Source: a virus (taxonomy: Duplodnaviria; Caudoviricetes). Taken from it: DNA of 64,000 bases. The DNA lies in IMG/VR virus record IMGVR_UViG_3300043748_000050, positions 34,040-98,039 of that record; one strand, given 5' to 3'. The notes beneath the pieces were generated by a model that did no database searches, was not told the origin of the DNA, and saw only the letters and a list, made by a program, of their open reading frames with translations. Made by a program: the position numbers and the translations under genes. Below, one piece after another: positions 3,267 through 34,074 of this stretch (positions within the stretch are counted from its first letter, which is position 1; the number at the start of each line of letters is the position of its first letter).

Positions 3267-3294
3267 GGTCCGTGCTCCTTGGTCGGCGTCCTGG

Positions 3295-3310
3295 TGAATT
3301 AATTAAACCA
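3295..3310. promoter_or_regulatory. 16-bp conserved inverted repeat (operator-like)
   Basis: TGAATTAATTAAACCA; family member. Confidence 0.75.
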
Positions 3311-3343
3311 TCGACGTGGACGGAACGCAATCCAGGGCACGAC

Positions 3344-3373
3344 AAAGCCCCGGCGCCGCAACGGCCCGGGGCT
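3344..3373. terminator. intrinsic terminator hairpin, exact inverted copy of 2955-2984
   Basis: AAAGCCCCGGCGCCGCAACGGCCCGGGGCT. Confidence 0.7.
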
Positions 3374-3385
3374 CGACGGTCGAGG

Positions 3386-3565
3386 TCAGTCCTCCAATTC
3401 GGCGTAGTGGTAGTCGTGAAGCTCTGCGGCCTCGGCCATGTCCTCGTGGTCGCGTGCGGCGGCCCGGCACTGGCTGGCGCCCGAGGTGTCGGGGTCCTCG
3501 GCGGCGGTCCGGCGGAGGGCGGCGGCCTCTCCCCGGTGGTACCTGATGGCGTCGCTGCGCTTCAT
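3386..3565 (-). CDS. hypothetical protein (59 aa)
   Basis: MKRSDAIRYH...; GAGGAAGG RBS upstream. Confidence 0.65.
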   Translation of the reverse strand: MKRSDAIRYHRGEAAALRRTAAEDPDTSGASQCRAAARDHEDMAEAAELHDYHYAELED

Positions 3566-3618: not shown

Positions 3619-3918
3619 TCAGCAGGTCTCCAGTTCGCCGACGACCTCCCACAGCGTGCTGTCGACGGTCCGGAGAACGTTCGTCACGCGGGGGCTGTCG
3701 TCGAGCAGGGCGACGGCGTCCAGGTAGCTCGCGGCCTCGTCCAGCGCGTTCAGGTTCGGGTCGAGCGGGCTGAGCCGCGTAGTCGCGTCCCGCAGGAGTC
3801 CGGCGAGGCCTTCGACGGTGGGTGCGTACTTGGTGACGGTGAGCCCGACGGCGTCGGCGATCCGTGCGGCGTAGTCGGCGTGCAGAGTTGCGACGGTGCG
3901 GGCGTTCTTGACCTTCAT
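3619..3918 (-). CDS. hypothetical protein (99 aa)
   Basis: GACCAAGGAATCGAGGAATC-ATG leader, directly downstream of hammerhead copy 1. Confidence 0.75.
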   Translation of the reverse strand: MKVKNARTVATLHADYAARIADAVGLTVTKYAPTVEGLAGLLRDATTRLSPLDPNLNALDEAASYLDAVALLDDSPRVTNVLRTVDSTLWEVVGELETC

Positions 3919-3934
3919 GATTCCTCGATTCCTT

Positions 3935-3995
3935 GGTCTGCCTCGTCAGTACCGGGGGACCGTTCCCGGCAGACGCCCCGCAGGGCGTTTCGGCT
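3935..3995 (-). ncRNA. hammerhead ribozyme, type II (copy 1)
   Basis: GCC-GAAA-CGCCC/GGGCG-UC-UGCCGGG(AACGGUCC)CCCGGUA-CUGACGA-GGC-AGACC: full core, three stems, GUC site (cut between 3972/3971), loop I GGUC can pair with 3' GACC. Confidence 0.88.
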
Positions 3996-4010
3996 ATCCA
4001 TGGTGGCGGA

Positions 4011-4214
4011 CTACCAGTCGCCGAAGGTGCAGACGATGGAGCAGCCGGACGCCCGACAGTCGTGGGCGCGGATCTCGGCGGCGCGCTCTTCGTCCTGCTG
4101 CGCGCGGGACTTCGCCCACCTCACCGGCTCGGCGCCGGCCTTCAGTTCCTCGCAGCGCGGGCAGCCGTCGAACTTCTGGCCGAAGCGCGGGGCGTGGTTG
4201 TGCTTCGTCGTCAT
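4011..4214 (-). CDS. small Cys/His-rich (probably Zn-binding) protein
   Basis: HNH...CPRC and HDC...C...C; GACCAAGGAA leader. Confidence 0.75.
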   Translation of the reverse strand: MTTKHNHAPRFGQKFDGCPRCEELKAGAEPVRWAKSRAQQDEERAAEIRAHDCRASGCSIVCTFGDW

Positions 4215-4257
4215 GGCTTCCTCGGTTCCTTGGTCAGGTGGTGCGTGGACAGGCGGG

Positions 4258-4353
4258 TCAGTTGTCGGTGCCGCGCTTCAACGGGACGAACACGACCCAC
4301 AGGGTGATGACGATCAGCGGGGCAAAGGCGGCGACGGTGATCAGGGCGTACAT
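4258..4353 (-). CDS. small membrane peptide (31 aa)
   Basis: MYALITVAAFAPLIVITLWVVFVPLKRGTDN; GACCAAGGAATGAGGGAG leader. Confidence 0.65.
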   Translation of the reverse strand: MYALITVAAFAPLIVITLWVVFVPLKRGTDN

Positions 4354-4390
4354 GGCTCCCTCATTCCTTGGTCGGTCGTGCGTGAACAGG

Positions 4391-5074
4391 TCAGATGAAG
4401 GTGCAGGTAGCCGAGTGCGTGCCGTTCGGCAGTCCGGTCAGGTCGGCGATCTCGTCACCGGTCAGGCGCAGCCGTTGGGCGAGCACCGCTCCCACGGCGG
4501 TGATTCGGTCCCAGTGCTCGTTCACGAGTTCGTCGGCGAGCTGGTGCACGATCAGGAAGTCGTTGTAGCCGCCCTCGAAGCCGAGGCCGGGGTTCCAGCC
4601 GAGAATCGCGCGGCGATCGCTATACGCTCCGAACTCGACTCCGACGGCGAGTTCGGGGGTCCACAGCCCGGCTTCGTGCAGCCAGCGGTCCTCGGCCCGT
4701 TCGCCGGCGCCCAGGAGGACGACGAAGTCCCGTCCGTCCGAGACGCTGCACGCCGCGACGTTGCCGCCGACCCGGTGACCTTCGATGACCATCCCGGCCG
4801 TGGCCCGCAGGTCTGCGGTGCGCCGGATCCACGCGTGGTGGACGAACCCGCCGGCCGCGAGTGCGGCAACGGCGTGGGCGGCTTCGTGCACTGCGCGCAT
4901 GCTGTCCCGCTGGTCGTCGGTCAAGTCGGCCAAGAGGACGTCACTGTCCACCACCCCGTCGGGAACCCGGTGCCGTGTCGGATACGGAGCACCGTTGATC
5001 ACCGCGTCGTCACGCCAGACGGGGACGGCCGGAGGGGTCCATGTCACGGGCGTGCTCTGCGCGGTGCCGGTCAT
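4391..5074 (-). CDS. HExxH zinc metallopeptidase-like protein (M41/FtsH protease-domain-like)
   Basis: AVHEAAHAVAA, LGAGERAE, SD; directly downstream of hammerhead copy 2. Confidence 0.65.
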   Translation of the reverse strand: MTGTAQSTPVTWTPPAVPVWRDDAVINGAPYPTRHRVPDGVVDSDVLLADLTDDQRDSMRAVHEAAHAVAALAAGGFVHHAWIRRTADLRATAGMVIEGHRVGGNVAACSVSDGRDFVVLLGAGERAEDRWLHEAGLWTPELAVGVEFGAYSDRRAILGWNPGLGFEGGYNDFLIVHQLADELVNEHWDRITAVGAVLAQRLRLTGDEIADLTGLPNGTHSATCTFI

Positions 5075-5094
5075 GGTCGGTTCCTCGTTTCCTT

Positions 5095-5155
5095 GGTCTG
5101 CCTCGTCAGTACCGGGAGACCGTCCCCGGCAGACGCCCCTCGGGGCGTTTCGGCT
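5095..5155 (-). ncRNA. hammerhead ribozyme, type II (copy 2)
   Basis: GCC-GAAA-CGCCC/GGGCG-UC-UGCCGGG(GACGGUCU)CCCGGUA-CUGACGA-GGC-AGACC; differs from copy 1 only in loops; cut between 5132/5131. Confidence 0.88.
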
Positions 5156-5156
5156 G

Positions 5157-5636
5157 TCAGGCGGAGAGTGCCTTCATGTACGAGTACAGGGCGTACACGA
5201 CGTCGTCGGTGCGGCCGGCGTCCAGCGAGGCGTAGAGCTTCGTCAGGCGGGACGGCTGGCGGCTGGCGAGCTTGACGAAGCCGATGGCGACCAGGTCTGA
5301 GAACATCCTGGGCGCCACGCCCTGCGGCGGGGTGATCTCCAGCGCGCGGGCCTGGACGGTCTCGCGGGCTGCTTCGAACCTCTCGTCGGTCGTGTCGTCC
5401 TTGTCGTCCGCCGTGGTGTCGCTCACGAGCGTCCAGCCCCACTTGACCATGTCCCGGACGGCCGTGCGGAAGGTGTGGAGGTCACCGCGCACGGTGTTGC
5501 GGGCGGTGACTCGGCCGTCCACCTTGACGATCTTCTGGCAGCGGTCGCGCCGGGCGGAGTGCAGGACGGTCAGGGTCTCGTTGCCCTTGGTGAGAACGGC
5601 CTTGTCCAGCTTCTCCGAGGTGGCGTTGGCGGTCAT
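5157..5636 (-). CDS. hypothetical protein (159 aa), first gene of accessory operon
   Basis: ORF with high GC3; palindrome and 5' hairpin upstream. Confidence 0.75.
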   Translation of the reverse strand: MTANATSEKLDKAVLTKGNETLTVLHSARRDRCQKIVKVDGRVTARNTVRGDLHTFRTAVRDMVKWGWTLVSDTTADDKDDTTDERFEAARETVQARALEITPPQGVAPRMFSDLVAIGFVKLASRQPSRLTKLYASLDAGRTDDVVYALYSYMKALSA

Positions 5637-5676: not shown

Positions 5677-5692
5677 TGATTTAATTAAACCA
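5677..5692. promoter_or_regulatory. 16-bp conserved inverted repeat
   Basis: TGATTTAATTAAACCA. Confidence 0.75.
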
Positions 5693-5777
5693 TCCGGGTG
5701 CGGGTCTCCACAAGACCCCGATTCCAAGAAGTTTCGGCCGACTCGCCGATCCGCTCACCTGCGGATACGGTGCCGAC

Positions 5778-6017
5778 ATGCCCGTACCCGACGCACCTCA
5801 CCCCCGACTCGCACCGTCGCCACAACCCTGGTGCATCGCCGTTCCGGACGGCGCCTGCTTCGACGGCGGAGTGGACTTCGTCCTCGGCCCGTACGACAGC
5901 GAGGCCGAGGCATGGGACGTCCACGGTCGGCTCGGCCACGACACGTGCGACTGCATGGCCGTCCCCGCGTTCACGGAGACGCCGAGAGGGGCCCCGGTCG
6001 CCCCGGAGCCCCTCTGA
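5778..6017 (+). CDS. hypothetical protein (79 aa)
   Basis: Fills gap between oppositely oriented genes; protein-like composition. Confidence 0.5.
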   Translation: MPVPDAPHPRLAPSPQPWCIAVPDGACFDGGVDFVLGPYDSEAEAWDVHGRLGHDTCDCMAVPAFTETPRGAPVAPEPL

Positions 6018-7167: not shown

Positions 7168-9171
7168 TCACCCGGCGGCTGCCTCCGCGTACAGACTGCC
7201 GGCGATCGCGTAGACCGCCCGCTCCGTAGGCGGGGTGAGCCTCTTCAGCACACCGTCCTCGGCCAGTTGCTCCAGCTCGCCGTACACCCAGCCGCGAGGC
7301 TTGCCGGTCAGCTCCGGGATGTCCTCCAGCGCCTCGAACGTCACCTCGGTCTGGTTGCTGCCGGACAGGATGTTGATCCGGTTGAGCAGCTCCGCACGGG
7401 CGTCGTCGTCGGTCATTTGGTCCCGCACCGGAGCTGCGAAGGTGACGCCCCGGCCGCGCGGCGCGGCCAGCGGTTCGCTTACGTCGATTCCGTCCTCACC
7501 TGCCGTGCCCAGGTCGCTGACCTCGGCAAAGTCGTCGTCCACCGTTCCCTCCACGTCTTGCTCCACGGCCGCCGGAGCGGTCTCGTCCACGACCCCGGCC
7601 GCCAGGATGCGGTAGGACCCGGCGTCCATGTCGGCCCAGAACTCCCGGGTGACCTGCTTCATCTGCTCGCGGTCGGCCGCCTTCACGCGCGGCGCCCGTC
7701 CGTCGATCGCCCAGTGGACCTTGTCCGTGCCCGTGACCTCGGCATACAGCGAACCGGGCGCGTTGTTGGCCCACTTGGTCGGGTCGGCACCCGCTTCGAG
7801 CGTCTCCGCCTCCAGCGAGTACCGCGCGTCCTGCATCTCCTTCTGCCCGTGGGCCAGGCTCTGAGCGAACTGACCTCGGGTTTTCCGGTCGATGTTGTTG
7901 TGCGGCATGGTCTGCATCGACGCGCAGAAGTGCACGCCGACCGACCTGAGTTTGCGCAGGGCCTCGTCGGCTTCCTCGTCCACCACCATCATCACGTCGG
8001 CGGCCTCTTCGATGTCCAGGAAGATGGCCGGGATGCCGTGCAGCGTGTACAGCTCAGGCACCCACTGCTTGTACCCGACTTTGCCGTCCGACCTGGTCAG
8101 TTCACCGAACAGACCTGCCCGGTACTCGATGAGCGGGATGAGGTTGCGCACCAGTTGCTCGGTGGCCTCCCTGGTCTTCGCGGCCAGGCCCAGCACTTCC
8201 TCGATGTCACCGAACGACTGCCGGAACTTGGCCGGGTCGCCGACCACGGGCACCACGTCGATGCGCTCGCGCATCTCGAGAATCGCCGTGCAGATGGTCT
8301 CCGTCTTGCCCGAGCCGGTCATGCCGGTGCACTTCGTGTGGGCCAGTGGCCTGGGGTTTTCGTCGTCCTCGGACCCGACGATCCACCAGTTGATGGACGA
8401 TCCGTCGGTGCGGTCCCCGAGCCAGATCGGGAAGTCCGCGATGGACGCCCCGAGGTGACGCGGGCCGGTCCAGCCAACAGGCTTCGCCTTGCCCGCAGCG
8501 CGGGTGAACGCGATGTCCACCTGACCCTCGTGACCTGCGACTTTGAGCACCTTGACCTGGTCGGCGCCGACGCCAGCGACGGCCGCGATCTGCTCCCGGG
8601 CGTGCTGGGCGTCCGCCGCCGTGGTCGGGGCATCCAGGTGGACCCGGGCGCGCAGCTCGTCCGGCTTCTCCGTGACCGTGCCGACCCGGGCGTCCTTGAA
8701 CGCCCGGACCTTGGCCAGCAGACCACCGTCTTTACCCTCGCTGACCTGAGACTTGTCGACGTCACGGACGCCGGACAGGGCCGCGTGACGCACGCACCAG
8801 GAGACGCAGAGGACTAGGCTGCCGATCGCCCAGGCCTCGAACACGTCCGCCTGCCACGGCCGGATGGCGATGGCGAAGATGGACCAGGTCAGCACGGCAA
8901 CGGTGAACACCGTGACCATGGCCCGGGTCTCCTGTCGGCGTACCGCCCAGGACTTCCAGGTGACGTACCCCAGGTACATGAAGCCGGCGGTGAGGAACGC
9001 CATCCACAGGTTGCCGTGCGCGTTGCGGGCGACGACGACGTGGAGTATGGCGGACAGCAGCCAGACGGCCACGACGACGACCCACGGCAGCACGTACGAG
9101 GTGAGGCGTTCAGGCACCCTGAGCAGGGCTGTTGCCCGCAGGCGGGGCGCGTTGTTCGACACTTCCTCCAC
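7168..9171 (-). CDS. traB: FtsK/SpoIIIE-family conjugative DNA translocase (Streptomyces TraB type)
   Basis: N-terminal TM helices, Walker A GMTGSGKT, Walker B IFLDIEE, RSVGVH..SMQ, C-terminal wHTH. Confidence 0.8.
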   Translation of the reverse strand: MEEVSNNAPRLRATALLRVPERLTSYVLPWVVVVAVWLLSAILHVVVARNAHGNLWMAFLTAGFMYLGYVTWKSWAVRRQETRAMVTVFTVAVLTWSIFAIAIRPWQADVFEAWAIGSLVLCVSWCVRHAALSGVRDVDKSQVSEGKDGGLLAKVRAFKDARVGTVTEKPDELRARVHLDAPTTAADAQHAREQIAAVAGVGADQVKVLKVAGHEGQVDIAFTRAAGKAKPVGWTGPRHLGASIADFPIWLGDRTDGSSINWWIVGSEDDENPRPLAHTKCTGMTGSGKTETICTAILEMRERIDVVPVVGDPAKFRQSFGDIEEVLGLAAKTREATEQLVRNLIPLIEYRAGLFGELTRSDGKVGYKQWVPELYTLHGIPAIFLDIEEAADVMMVVDEEADEALRKLRSVGVHFCASMQTMPHNNIDRKTRGQFAQSLAHGQKEMQDARYSLEAETLEAGADPTKWANNAPGSLYAEVTGTDKVHWAIDGRAPRVKAADREQMKQVTREFWADMDAGSYRILAAGVVDETAPAAVEQDVEGTVDDDFAEVSDLGTAGEDGIDVSEPLAAPRGRGVTFAAPVRDQMTDDDARAELLNRINILSGSNQTEVTFEALEDIPELTGKPRGWVYGELEQLAEDGVLKRLTPPTERAVYAIAGSLYAEAAAG

Positions 9172-9176
9172 CCCTC

Positions 9177-9794
9177 TCAGACCGACTCAAGGCGGAATCC
9201 GCCACGACGCCCGGGACGGTTGACCTTGCTGCCCTTCTCGCTGTCCAGATTGGACAGGAATGTGTCGAATCGGCGCCAGGCCTTGGTCGCGCTGACCGCA
9301 CCGGCCACGCACGCCTTGGTCACCCCGTCCAGGTCACGGCTGAGGTCGTGCAGTGCCTTGACCAGCGCGGCCTGCTGAGTCAGCGTCAGCCGCTCGTCGC
9401 TCGCCTGCCTTGCCTGCTGCCTCGCAGCCGCCTTGAGCTGGCCCTTTGCCAGCTCGGTGGAGACAGCGAAGTAGTGCAGCACCTTGCGGATGGCCTCGCA
9501 GTACGCGTGGATGTCGGTCTCGTTGCTCAGCTCCATGTCGCCGATGGACTGCGCGAGTTGAGAGATGCTCTGTCCTCGGGAGCCGCCGAGCCCGGACGAC
9601 GCCCGACGCGGCCCGGCACCCTGGCTGACCTGCCCGTTTCCGTACTGCGCATTGCCTACGCTGGAGTTTTGGGACGGCATCGGGTGGCCGTTGCCCTGGA
9701 GCCCGAGGTTGCGCAGCTCCTCGGCGGACTTGCCGTGCGCCCGGCCTGCCGCCGTGAACGGGGACGGGGGCGCACCTGTGTTGTTACCGCTCAT
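9177..9794 (-). CDS. traA: plasmid transfer protein TraA-like
   Basis: Gly/Ser-rich N-terminus, LSNETDIHAYCE, helical body; immediately upstream of traB. Confidence 0.55.
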   Translation of the reverse strand: MSGNNTGAPPSPFTAAGRAHGKSAEELRNLGLQGNGHPMPSQNSSVGNAQYGNGQVSQGAGPRRASSGLGGSRGQSISQLAQSIGDMELSNETDIHAYCEAIRKVLHYFAVSTELAKGQLKAAARQQARQASDERLTLTQQAALVKALHDLSRDLDGVTKACVAGAVSATKAWRRFDTFLSNLDSEKGSKVNRPGRRGGFRLESV

Positions 9795-9964
9795 TCCTGG
9801 TTCCTCTTCCTTGGTCGAAGGCGAAAGCCTCACCAGGGTCATCCCCAGTGAGGCTTTACCTAAATCAAGCGTCCCGCGATTGGCCGCGATGCGCAATCAG
9901 TTCTTCGGCCCGTCAGGACCGCACGCCGGACGAGAGTCATCCGCTTTCGCCCCGGACCGCCCGT

Positions 9965-10230
9965 AAGGCTTTCGCTGGCGACCCGCAAGCTCGGGCACCG
10001 AGAGCGCAAGGGCGAGAGCCTTGCGGCCGAGCCGAGCGAAAGCCCCGGGGGGCGCAAGACGCAAGCTCTCGGCCCGGGGCGAGAGCGAAAGCCGGCGAGC
10101 CGGGACGCAAGGCGCAAGCGAGAGCGGGACCGAGAGCTTTCGGCGCACGCGGTCCGCACGGCCTGGGCCGAGAGCATCCGTACCGCCGCAAGCCCCGTAC
10201 AGCCGGGGTGAAAACGGCGAGAGCCGCAGC
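9965..10230. repeat. dense CG(A/C)(A/G)AGC heptamer repeat region
   Basis: More than 15 CGAGAGC/CGAAAGC/CGCAAGC copies in both orientations, continuing into the 3' end of 10289-11314. Confidence 0.65.
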
Positions 10231-10288
10231 CGGCGCACGGTTGCTTGCGCCTGGTCTGCGGCTCCCTGAGAGCTGCGGTACGGCCCCG

Positions 10289-11314
10289 CTACGATCCGTT
10301 CGTCGCCAGCTTGCGCAGGGCGGCACGGTGCGCACGGATGCTGTCGCCGGTGACGCTCACACCGACCAGGGACAGCACGTCCGAAAGCTCCCGTGCGGTC
10401 AGGCCCGGGTTCAGGCTGTCGGCTTTCGCCACGGCGTCTCGCTTCGAAAGCTCGGACCAGGCCGGGGGCTCGTGCGAAAGCAGCCCGGCCGCGTACGCCG
10501 TGACGTCGATTGCGGGCTTGCGGTCCAGGCTTTCGGTGCTCTCGCTCTCGGTCTTTCGGTCCTCTCGCGCGAGGCTTTCGGTCCTTGCGCTTTCGGCGAG
10601 AGCGAGAGACGAGGACCAGTCGTGGCGCACGTCGATGCCGGCGAGAGACACGACGGACTTCCTCCGGACGACGCGCGCGACGATGGCCGCCTCAGCCTGG
10701 TCCGCGTCGACGGGGGAGAGGCCATGACGCGCGGCGTCAATCTGTCCAGCGAGCCGCGCCCGCAGCCGGGCATGCCTGTTGCTGCCCGGCTTGGCGGAGG
10801 CGACCCGGTCGGCGAGAGCGACGGCCCGGTCGGCCGCACGGCTGCGTGCGATGGCGGCCGAGTCGATGCCGCGCCGGCCGATGCCGAGGTACGCGGTCAG
10901 CCGCTCACGCAGCTCCCGCAGGGCGGAGGCCACCAGGCCGTCCGACTTCCGGCCGGACATCTTCAGGTCGAGTCCGAGCAGCAAGTGGAGCATGACGGCC
11001 AGCAGAACCGGGCCGAAGATGACGCGGACCGGGCCGCCGACTCCGCCGGAGATCTTGAAGGCGGGGATGGCCTGGGCGAGGACGGCCACGTAGGCCAGGT
11101 ACGCGGGCGCCTTGGTCTTGGTGGCCCACGAGTACACGGTGAGTGCGACGATGGCGGACTCGGCGGTGCCGCACAGCGCGAGACGTTCGCCGTGGCCCGT
11201 GATCTGGAGGGCCTTGCCGAGAAAGCGGTACGAAGTGTCGGCGCTCATGCCGATGCCGAGGGTGGTCGGGACGAGGAGTCCGAAGGCCGCAGCCTTCGTG
11301 CGGTTCAGTTCCAT
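10289..11314 (-). CDS. SpdB/DUF2637-like membrane transfer/spread protein
   Basis: Several N-terminal TM helices, coiled middle, C-terminal HTH-like region; upstream of traA-traB. Confidence 0.6.
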   Translation of the reverse strand: MELNRTKAAAFGLLVPTTLGIGMSADTSYRFLGKALQITGHGERLALCGTAESAIVALTVYSWATKTKAPAYLAYVAVLAQAIPAFKISGGVGGPVRVIFGPVLLAVMLHLLLGLDLKMSGRKSDGLVASALRELRERLTAYLGIGRRGIDSAAIARSRAADRAVALADRVASAKPGSNRHARLRARLAGQIDAARHGLSPVDADQAEAAIVARVVRRKSVVSLAGIDVRHDWSSSLALAESARTESLAREDRKTESESTESLDRKPAIDVTAYAAGLLSHEPPAWSELSKRDAVAKADSLNPGLTARELSDVLSLVGVSVTGDSIRAHRAALRKLATNGS

Positions 11315-16940: not shown

Positions 16941-17015
16941 TCCTGTGTCCTGTCTCTTGTGCCCTGTGAACCTCTCGCCGGTGGCGATGAGGGGGAGCCG
17001 GTGGAGCGTGGCTCC

Positions 17016-17115
17016 GGTGCGCGGCCGGGATTCGAACCCGGGATCTTCCTGGACTTACCGGCACGGGGATGACCGGGGTCCTGGGTGCTCTGGCCTGTTG
17101 AGCTACCGCGCGACC
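17016..17115 (-). ncRNA. tRNA-like RNA with elongated anticodon arm
   Basis: GCGCGG-UA-GCUC(AACAGGCCA)GAGC ... CCGGG-UUCGAAU-CCCGG-CCGCGC-A; canonical D and T arms, ~37-nt anticodon arm. Confidence 0.7.
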
Positions 17116-33519: not shown

Positions 33520-34074
33520 ATGGTGAACCTCGGGCCCACGGAGCCCTACCAGCCGAGGCCCGGAGATCTCGGGCTCACGCAGATCAGCGGCTGGGGTGGC
33601 AAGGCGATCCGCCTCGGGCAGTGGCTCAACGGGGACGGATACGCCGACTACGAACACACCTACGTCGTGACCGGGACGGACCCGGACGGCACGGTGTGGA
33701 TCGTGGAGGCGATGCCCGGCGGCGCGCAGCACGTGGGCAACTGGCACGACCCGGCGCGCACCCGCTATCTGGTCTGCCCGGACGAGTACCGGGAGGCCGT
33801 CGCATCGATCGCCGTGCGCCAGGCGGACCGGAAGGTTCCGTACTCCGCCCTGGACTATGAGGCCCTGGCGCTGCACCGGTTCCACGTCCCGGCGCCGGGC
33901 CTGCGCGCGTACATCGAGAGCAGCGGCCACCAGATCTGCTCCCAGCTCGCGGACTACTGCGCGGCGAAGGGCGGCTGGCACCTGTTCAACGACAACCGCT
34001 GGCCGGGCTACGTCACTCCCGGGGACTTGAACCGGCTGTGGGAGCAGCAGAACCGGTCAGAGAACAGTCGTTAA
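33520..34074 (+). CDS. permuted NlpC/P60 papain-like protein
   Basis: PGD, EHTYV, VEA, PY, ICSQL (His before Cys). Confidence 0.65.
   Translation: MVNLGPTEPYQPRPGDLGLTQISGWGGKAIRLGQWLNGDGYADYEHTYVVTGTDPDGTVWIVEAMPGGAQHVGNWHDPARTRYLVCPDEYREAVASIAVRQADRKVPYSALDYEALALHRFHVPAPGLRAYIESSGHQICSQLADYCAAKGGWHLFNDNRWPGYVTPGDLNRLWEQQNRSENSR

Follow-up and report, generated by a model that had tools for sequence, protein, structure and literature searches.

Two type II hammerhead ribozymes lie between the genes of a single predicted minus-strand transcription unit in a Streptomyces phage-plasmid, within the 64,000-nucleotide window analyzed here (positions 34,040 to 98,039 of IMG/VR record IMGVR_UViG_3300043748_000050). 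We consider it probable that the transcript of this unit, extending from 5713-5684 as far as the closing hairpin (3373-3343), self-cleaves into three mRNAs, with each ribozyme serving as an exchangeable substitute for a terminator plus a new 5' end. Sequence comparison and the tools built on it support the family membership, geometry, and placement of the ribozymes, as well as the exchange of the junctions that they occupy.

The record (G000) is a complete virus genome of 98,039 bases with direct terminal repeats and 68% GC, and encodes homologs of portal, capsid, and tape-measure proteins. Its primase shares 69% identity with that of pS1D4-14.2, a plasmid of Streptomyces sp. S1D4-14 whose annotation includes terminase, portal, capsid, tape measure, and ParA, and the alignment to this plasmid covers 69% of the G000 genome at ~77% identity. 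On the basis of the primase match, the alignment, and this annotation, G000 is a Streptomyces phage-plasmid, the host being assigned from its relatives. Contigs covering the window in four soil DNA runs bear out the assembly in the samples that are its likely source. These contigs, which drop rare variants, revealed no deletion joint linking the two ribozyme repeats. Although this is a tailed phage genome, the window also contains FtsK/TraB-like and adjoining transfer-type genes (7168-11314, minus), which fit a conjugative phage-plasmid.

The original prediction described a ~61-nt repeat at 3935-3995 and 5095-5155 that reads on the minus strand as a hammerhead with an intact core, its copies differing in loop regions and each placed after a stop codon. 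Its coordinates and anatomy were right. The two copies, A and B, form a 78-nt direct repeat with 92% identity, 1160 nt apart, and of the 61 positions only four differ, two in loop III and two at the top of stem I or the edge of loop I. Copy A begins 1-2 nt past the TGA at 5159-5157 and copy B 15 nt past a TAG. The Rfam Hammerhead_II model (RF02276), proposed at the outset as a check, matched copy A at 5155-5092(-) with 66.2 bits (E = 1.6e-11) and copy B at 3995-3932(-) with 61.4 bits (E = 2.9e-10), in both cases over the full model (positions 1-66) and against a gathering cut-off of 37 bits. These were exactly the two Hammerhead_II matches in the whole 98,039-base genome, and no other ribozyme class was detected in the window, in the rest of the genome, or in pS1D4-14.2. 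A full type II descriptor also returned two matches in the genome, compared with none in 100 order-2 Markov genomes of equal size.

Both copies have loop-closed stems I and III and an open stem II. The core sequences CUGACGA, GAAA, and GUC are present in each, with canonical core-adjacent G-C, U-A, and A-U pairs (scored as C3 U4 G5 A6 N7 G8 A9, G12 A13 A14 A15, and U16 H17, with pairs 10.1-11.1, 1.1-2.1, and 15.1-16.1). In copy A, GAAA is found at 5151-5148, GUC at 5134-5132, and CUGACGA at 5109-5103, and stem II pairs GCC 5154-5152 with GGC 5102-5100. Stem II comprises 3 bp in both copies, stem III five pairs plus A15.1-U16.1 (the five being G-C in copy A), and stem I 8 bp in copy A and 7 bp in copy B. 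The anticipated type II form with a loop I pseudoknot was borne out as a predicted pairing of GGUCU 5121-5117 with AGACC 5099-5095 (5 bp) in copy A and of GGUC with GACC (4 bp) in copy B, and this pairing covaries across phage copies. Cleavage with Mg2+, giving a 2',3'-cyclic phosphate and a 5'-OH, is predicted at both sites. The predicted 3' products start at 5131 and 3971, the positions first proposed, and lie 57 and 53 nt before their ATGs, close to the ~55 nt first estimated.

For the isolated motifs, the MFE structure is the hammerhead fold (~-27 kcal/mol), and the MFE z-scores of the ribozyme regions were unremarkable for 68% GC. Copy B folded robustly in the fold model. Copy A showed a rival fold between stem I and the start-codon region in a model without the pseudoknot, in which P(stem I) was 0.01-0.36 when 30-45 nt beyond the pseudoknot were added. 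A stop codon lies no more than 2 nt before copy A, so translation could modulate this copy.

Table 1. Features of the ribozyme unit and its surroundings (window coordinates unless stated otherwise).
Feature	Position	Strand	Remarks
Strong hairpin ending upstream 135-aa gene	5986..6014	-	-37 kcal/mol, z -3.59; same position in relatives
Promoter/operator-like site heading the unit	5684..5713	-	TTG..17-18 nt..TTTAAT in AT-rich near-palindrome; putative function
159-aa gene, piece 1	5157..5636	-	2 homologs only; no Pfam/PHROG match
Hammerhead A, type II with loop I-tail pseudoknot	5095..5155	-	predicted cut C5132/U5131
Leader GACCAAGGAA	5089..5098	-	first 4 nt serve as 3' pseudoknot strand for ribozyme A
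227-aa HExxH metallopeptidase-like gene, first gene of piece 2	4391..5074	-	FtsH protease-domain (M41-like) fold, predicted
31-aa hydrophobic small ORF, piece 2	4258..4353	-	own leader at 4373; GC3 0.97
67-aa Cys-rich gene, piece 2	4011..4214	-	55-90% identical homologs, same slot in relatives
Hammerhead B, type II with pseudoknot	3935..3995	-	predicted cut C3972/U3971
Leader GACCAAGGAA	3929..3938	-	pseudoknot 3' strand of ribozyme B
99-aa helical gene, first gene of piece 3	3619..3918	-	2 homologs, more in L013 and L036
59-aa gene, piece 3	3386..3565	-	ORF with SD-like sequence; no family match
Terminator-like hairpin closing the unit	3343..3373	-	-28.9 kcal/mol, z -2.65; exact repeat at 2955-2985
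Next promoter/operator-like site, opening the following unit	3302..3330	-	motif match
tRNA-like RNA	genome 24332-24430 (L050:833-931)	-	outside the window, 9.6 kb before it

To this evidence from single copies, an alignment of both copies with 14 phage copies adds covariation, both partners changing in 15 of 20 pairs, among them all four of the pseudoknot. None of 500 shuffles reached the observed level, and slid controls collapsed. Across 22 copies, pairing between loop and tail averaged 4.9 bp versus 3.9 bp in 2000 shuffles, none of which equaled it. The cut-to-ATG distances of 53-57 nt are typical, comparison copies spanning 41-77 nt. The covariation expected in related phages was thus seen across unrelated phages, in which similar ribozymes (75-87% identical) occur, but the orthologous junctions of close relatives proved to have no ribozyme at all.

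The unit consists of six minus-strand ORFs (159, 227, 31, 67, 99, and 59 aa), with ribozyme A at the 159/227 junction and ribozyme B at the 67/99 junction, and a hairpin (5986-6014) separates it from the 135-aa gene. The promoter/operator-like motif has 17 strict copies in the genome, intergenic and oriented with the downstream genes, and counts of this AT-rich motif range over 17-26 copies. A sigma-70 and terminator scan recognized neither the phage promoter motif nor the GC hairpins. A 79-aa plus-strand ORF (5778-6017) lies between the hairpin at 5986-6014 and the promoter-like site, converging on the hairpin, and is missing from that spacer in relatives. Immediately downstream of the unit are conserved glycosyltransferases, a methyltransferase, and an NAD-dependent epimerase (12-2875, minus), for which a role in virion or DNA glycosylation is possible.

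For the HExxH peptidase gene named in the original prediction, profile and structure searches pointed to FtsH. Its 227-aa protein yielded 113 homolog matches, the named ones from Streptomyces and Kitasatospora; H63, E64, H67, and D153 are invariant. The profile matched FtsH structure 2di4 (E = 0.003), and with a predicted model of pLDDT 93.6, the top Foldseek matches were all FtsH-family (E = 2e-4, TM ~0.4-0.5). The protein has no Pfam match and no AAA domain, and its homologs match M41/M50B weakly. We describe it as a stand-alone putative metallopeptidase with a predicted FtsH-protease-domain-like (M41-like) fold. A single-sequence search of viral contigs with this protein found nothing, whereas an alignment-based search found 16 viral loci. 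The other proteins of the unit belong to no known family, and Atlas searches with the 159-aa and 99-aa proteins returned nothing usable.

Both ribozymes abut a leader, GACCAAGGAA, that recurs throughout the phage. Its 9-mer occurs 42 times in the genome versus ~1 expected, nearly always 9-30 nt before a start codon, and it precedes four of the six genes of the ribozyme unit. All close relatives keep the leader, in 24-50 copies each. Copies in the window include those at 3284, 4235, 4373, 6468, 9816, 25025, 29547, and 49619. Searches with strict DNA patterns for family members carrying ribozyme and leader gave, variously, nothing, a single unrelated 53% GC contig, and one real plus eight chance matches.

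Comparison of the orthologous junctions indicated how dispensable the ribozymes are. Hammerhead_II was absent from the close complete relatives G001, G002, G013, G017, and G018, from pS1D4-14.2, and from all 16 virus records with an HExxH homolog, four of which (three distinct phages) belong to the close family. No ribozyme was found upstream of HExxH homologs in 23 loci or upstream of 99-aa homologs in three. A conserved, glmS-like cis-regulator of the HExxH gene was rejected for this reason. In L036, homologs of the 159-aa (62%) and HExxH (63%) proteins follow one another as in the window, with a GC hairpin and the phage promoter motif between them, a terminator-promoter swap at an identical junction that was seen in this one relative only. 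L038 has a plain leader between its homologs of the 67-aa and 99-aa genes, and in both loci similarity to the window resumes at the leader, at GACCAAGG. Elsewhere, the HExxH gene comes first, behind a terminator and promoter (L013, L032, and L033), or is preceded by a plain leader (L016 and L017). Since these close relatives do without the ribozyme, the downstream genes do not need it. Judging by its absence from five close relatives and by junction swaps that end at the leader, the ribozyme looks to be a recent and replaceable substitute for transcript punctuation.

G019, a more remote family member that shares synteny (~40-70% protein identity), carries two further type II copies (4593-5046; L092:1501-1954) between different genes, one of them directly before its leader. 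By position and sequence, these are an independent gain. They are preceded by ~400 nt with no obvious ORF. Among other readings of the G000 repeat, a rolling-circle or retroelement role was rejected, this being a dsDNA tailed phage with only two copies, as was a CRISPR or terminator reading.

Expression and cleavage of the ribozyme unit are inferences, as is the direction of any effect on mRNA stability. By established chemistry, hammerhead cleavage leaves a 2',3'-cyclic phosphate on the upstream piece and a 5'-OH on the downstream piece. Cuts at 5132/5131 and 3972/3971 would divide the transcript into one mRNA for the 159-aa protein, one for the HExxH, 31-aa, and 67-aa proteins, and one for the 99-aa and 59-aa proteins. 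The three-piece processing originally proposed thus holds as a prediction, with the correction that the middle piece also contains a 31-aa ORF (4353-4258) with a leader. Each upstream piece would end in stem III just past the stop codon, resembling a terminator hairpin. Each downstream piece would begin 53-57 nt before its ATG with the 5'-OH paired in stem I, and may keep the pseudoknot, which can still form because both of its strands lie in the 3' product. A single cut would in this way create a terminator-like end and a protected new start, as the terminator-promoter of L036 does, without a second promoter. The three pieces would be co-induced from one promoter, with separate decay and translation. 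The ribozyme itself would be a recent spacer module inserted between a stop codon and the standard phage leader.

Several observations weigh against this scheme. The close complete relatives do without the ribozyme and L016 and L017 use a plain leader, so that any selection for punctuation here is only putative, and copy A has the competing fold with the start-codon region noted above (in a model without the pseudoknot). Moreover, RNA with a 5'-OH end can be a target of RNase J in B. subtilis, and this enzyme also exists in Streptomyces (PMC4652760), so stability may change in either direction. The RiboJ ribozyme-plus-hairpin, which raises mRNA about twofold, offers a precedent for stabilization (PMC6206723).

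Other explanations were weighed against self-cleavage as punctuation. The ribozymes may be tolerated passengers, active elements from another phage that were copied once locally and cut with little effect, since each gene has a strong leader of its own. This would account for the five close relatives without a ribozyme, for the 92% identity of the copies over 78 nt (hence one recent gain followed by duplication or conversion), for the 75-87% identical ribozymes of unrelated phages, and for the copies in the Streptomyces R4-like phages Tefunt (eight) and R4 (nine). We regard it as unlikely, given that both copies sit exactly between stop codon and leader, that their loop matches the phage's own leader so as to preserve the pseudoknot, that the differences between copies avoid the core, and that G019 independently gained two in the same type of slot.

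Cleavage might also lower expression in a glmS-like manner, the 5'-OH ends feeding RNase J and damping the HExxH peptidase and 99-aa genes. The glmS ribozyme is a precedent (PMC6765202), B. subtilis RNase J acts exonucleolytically on 5'-monophosphate or 5'-OH ends (PMC4652760), damping of a protease is plausible, and the copy A product has an AUG-burying fold. However, stem I (7-8 bp) takes in the new 5' base and leaves no single-stranded overhang, relatives have a promoter, an enhancing element, at the ribozyme position, and the predicted cost of opening the SD/AUG of the 99-aa gene drops from 4.4 to 1.4 kcal/mol after the cut, all of which render lowered expression improbable. A purely DNA-level role, in which repeated spacer modules (terminator-promoter, ribozyme, and leader) act as crossover points for accessory-gene swaps and catalysis is incidental, would explain why gene content in the slot is highly mosaic with breakpoints at the leader and why a 78-nt direct repeat flanks a 1.16-kb block. 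Recombination, however, needs no intact catalytic core, covarying stems, or pseudoknot, and we consider such a role very improbable.

A second phage RNA bears on the same leader. This tRNA-like RNA combines acceptor, D, and T arms and an encoded CCA with a long anticodon arm. In place of the anticodon loop, it carries a 7-bp stem topped by a 16-nt loop, which is antisense to the leader GACCAAGGAA (10 bp). The loop also complements the stretch from SD to start codon in five genes, the HExxH gene among them. The RNA is found in G001, G002, G013/G014, G018, and pS1D4-14.2 with compensatory changes and an invariant 14-nt loop, and six close genomes (including G000) have both RNA and leader. A search of 12 phages with no leader in the regions fetched did not detect it, and in G019 it is degenerate, its loop no longer matching the leader. 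Rfam placed it in no family beyond tRNA, one homolog scoring as tRNA, and a non-exhaustive literature search found nothing relevant on tRNA-like antisense RNAs. Based on its loop and conservation, it is a candidate genome-wide antisense regulator, apparently undescribed, and probably more novel than the hammerheads. P1 C4 and P4 CI are structured antisense RNAs of plasmid prophages with a loop complementary to phage leaders. Unlike them, the RNA described here has no such Rfam match and would target ~40 leaders rather than one operon. A second tRNA-like fold with a long anticodon arm is present at 17015-17112 (minus) of the window.

Whether this RNA also controls the ribozymes in trans appears doubtful. 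It would enter via the unpaired AAGGAA, pair with GACCAAGGAA, displace the 4-5 bp pseudoknot, and slow cleavage; alternatively, the pseudoknot would shield these two leaders from the antisense RNA. These would then be natural hammerheads switched by a second phage RNA, with operon cleavage gated by phage state (plasmid versus lytic), a prospect that we likewise rate as improbable. In its favor, the RNA loop complements the leader exactly, and in six leader-bearing close genomes the RNA persists with compensatory changes around an unvarying loop. Its binding at both ribozyme tails is estimated at ~-11 kcal/mol before payment of ~6-7 kcal/mol for the pseudoknot, whose helix is itself estimated at ~-6 to -7 kcal/mol (these values derive from opening energies, as RNAcofold cannot model loop-strand pairing). 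Loss of the pseudoknot slowed a tested hammerhead 20- to >100-fold (PMC3088659). On the other hand, the RNA is lineage-wide and the ribozymes are confined to one genome, so the two did not co-evolve. Binding is no better at the ribozyme tails than at plain leaders, and cleavage during transcription may be complete before the RNA binds. In G019, the pseudoknot pairs through bases lying upstream of the leader, and the RNA loop no longer matches the leader. Finally, pairing with GACC would in any case be possible for about a third (10 of 27) of unrelated type II loops. A simpler reading is that a ribozyme with a GGUC loop was pre-fitted to land before this phage's leader.

Clustered phage hammerheads are already known, and the ribozymes described here are ordinary. 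Natural type II hammerheads with a pseudoknot were defined by Perreault et al. in 2011, who described prophage hammerheads flanking single genes or short blocks and proposed processing to operon- or gene-length mRNAs (PMC3088659). In that study, ~2-kb native polycistrons were cleaved in vitro, one set also in E. coli, and 14 of 18 consensus hammerheads cleaved (PMC3088659). In Desulfovibrio, Olzog et al. demonstrated in vivo cleavage for three type II copies near phage-like genes (PMC8782182). The purpose of phage intergenic self-cleaving ribozymes is listed as unresolved in a 2019 review (PMC6765202). Our non-exhaustive literature search found nothing relevant on hammerheads in Streptomyces phages.

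Both copies resemble RF02276 (PMC3088659) in permutation, core, GUC, 3-bp stem II, and 4-5 bp pseudoknot, with no structural difference. The pseudoknot strand is here the opening 4 nt of a start motif found throughout the phage, whereas none of 27 other type II copies, which were not selected for it, has a GACC tail. With two sense-strand, intergenic ribozymes flanking genes of one (predicted) unit, the locus is a cluster of the Perreault type. The prophage clusters of the Agrobacterium ardA region, Clostridium scindens, and Azorhizobium (PMC3088659, Fig. 3) and the Desulfovibrio copies (PMC8782182) likewise bracket a small block of accessory genes, also with two ribozymes in one transcription unit and proposed processing to shorter mRNAs. 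The present case differs in its Streptomyces phage-plasmid host group, in having only two copies, and in the comparison of relatives' junctions (terminator plus promoter, plain leader), which we did not find in the literature examined. The R4/Tefunt arrays (Arquatrovirinae) share the host genus, the type II form between small accessory genes, and a similar cut-to-ATG spacing, but belong to an unrelated 50-kb phage group with 8-9 copies in each genome, which could represent a donor pool. In RiboJ, too, the ribozyme cut yields a standard 5' hairpin upstream of the RBS (PMC6206723), but RiboJ is engineered, derived from sTRSV with an added hairpin, and placed after a promoter rather than between cistrons.

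What this case adds is a close relative with a terminator plus promoter at one and the same gene junction. This natural swap, with a hammerhead between the two genes here and a terminator and promoter between the same pair there, makes the idea of the ribozyme as punctuation that keeps one promoter directly testable. Such tests are practical because there are cultured systems, namely, Streptomyces sp. S1D4-14, which carries the close relative pS1D4-14.2 as a plasmid, and phages R4 and Tefunt with their 8-9 ribozymes.

In Tefunt (L003; NC_054665.1, 43509-49008) and R4 (L004; NC_019414.1, 41776-49461), eight and nine Hammerhead_II matches, respectively, lie in the right-arm accessory region. They carry no annotation in the stretches viewed, and some share sequence with annotated ORFs; R4 gp60.1 is possibly spurious, and the start of Tefunt gp79 may be wrong. 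A 5.5-kb stretch of IMG/VR 3300034980_000253 (L005:5300-10821) holds at least four Rfam type II hammerheads, two more by descriptor, and four twister-P5 ribozymes. The likely source soil sample contains a different, low-depth 4511-nt contig with a similar, apparently tandem hammerhead (seven differences from window 3934-3996), a possible co-occurring donor. Two type II hammerheads in another locus (L006:12480-12921, minus) have as their pseudoknot 3' strand the Shine-Dalgarno sequence AGGAG, 9-10 nt before the ATG, so that ribozyme folding and ribosome binding would compete directly.
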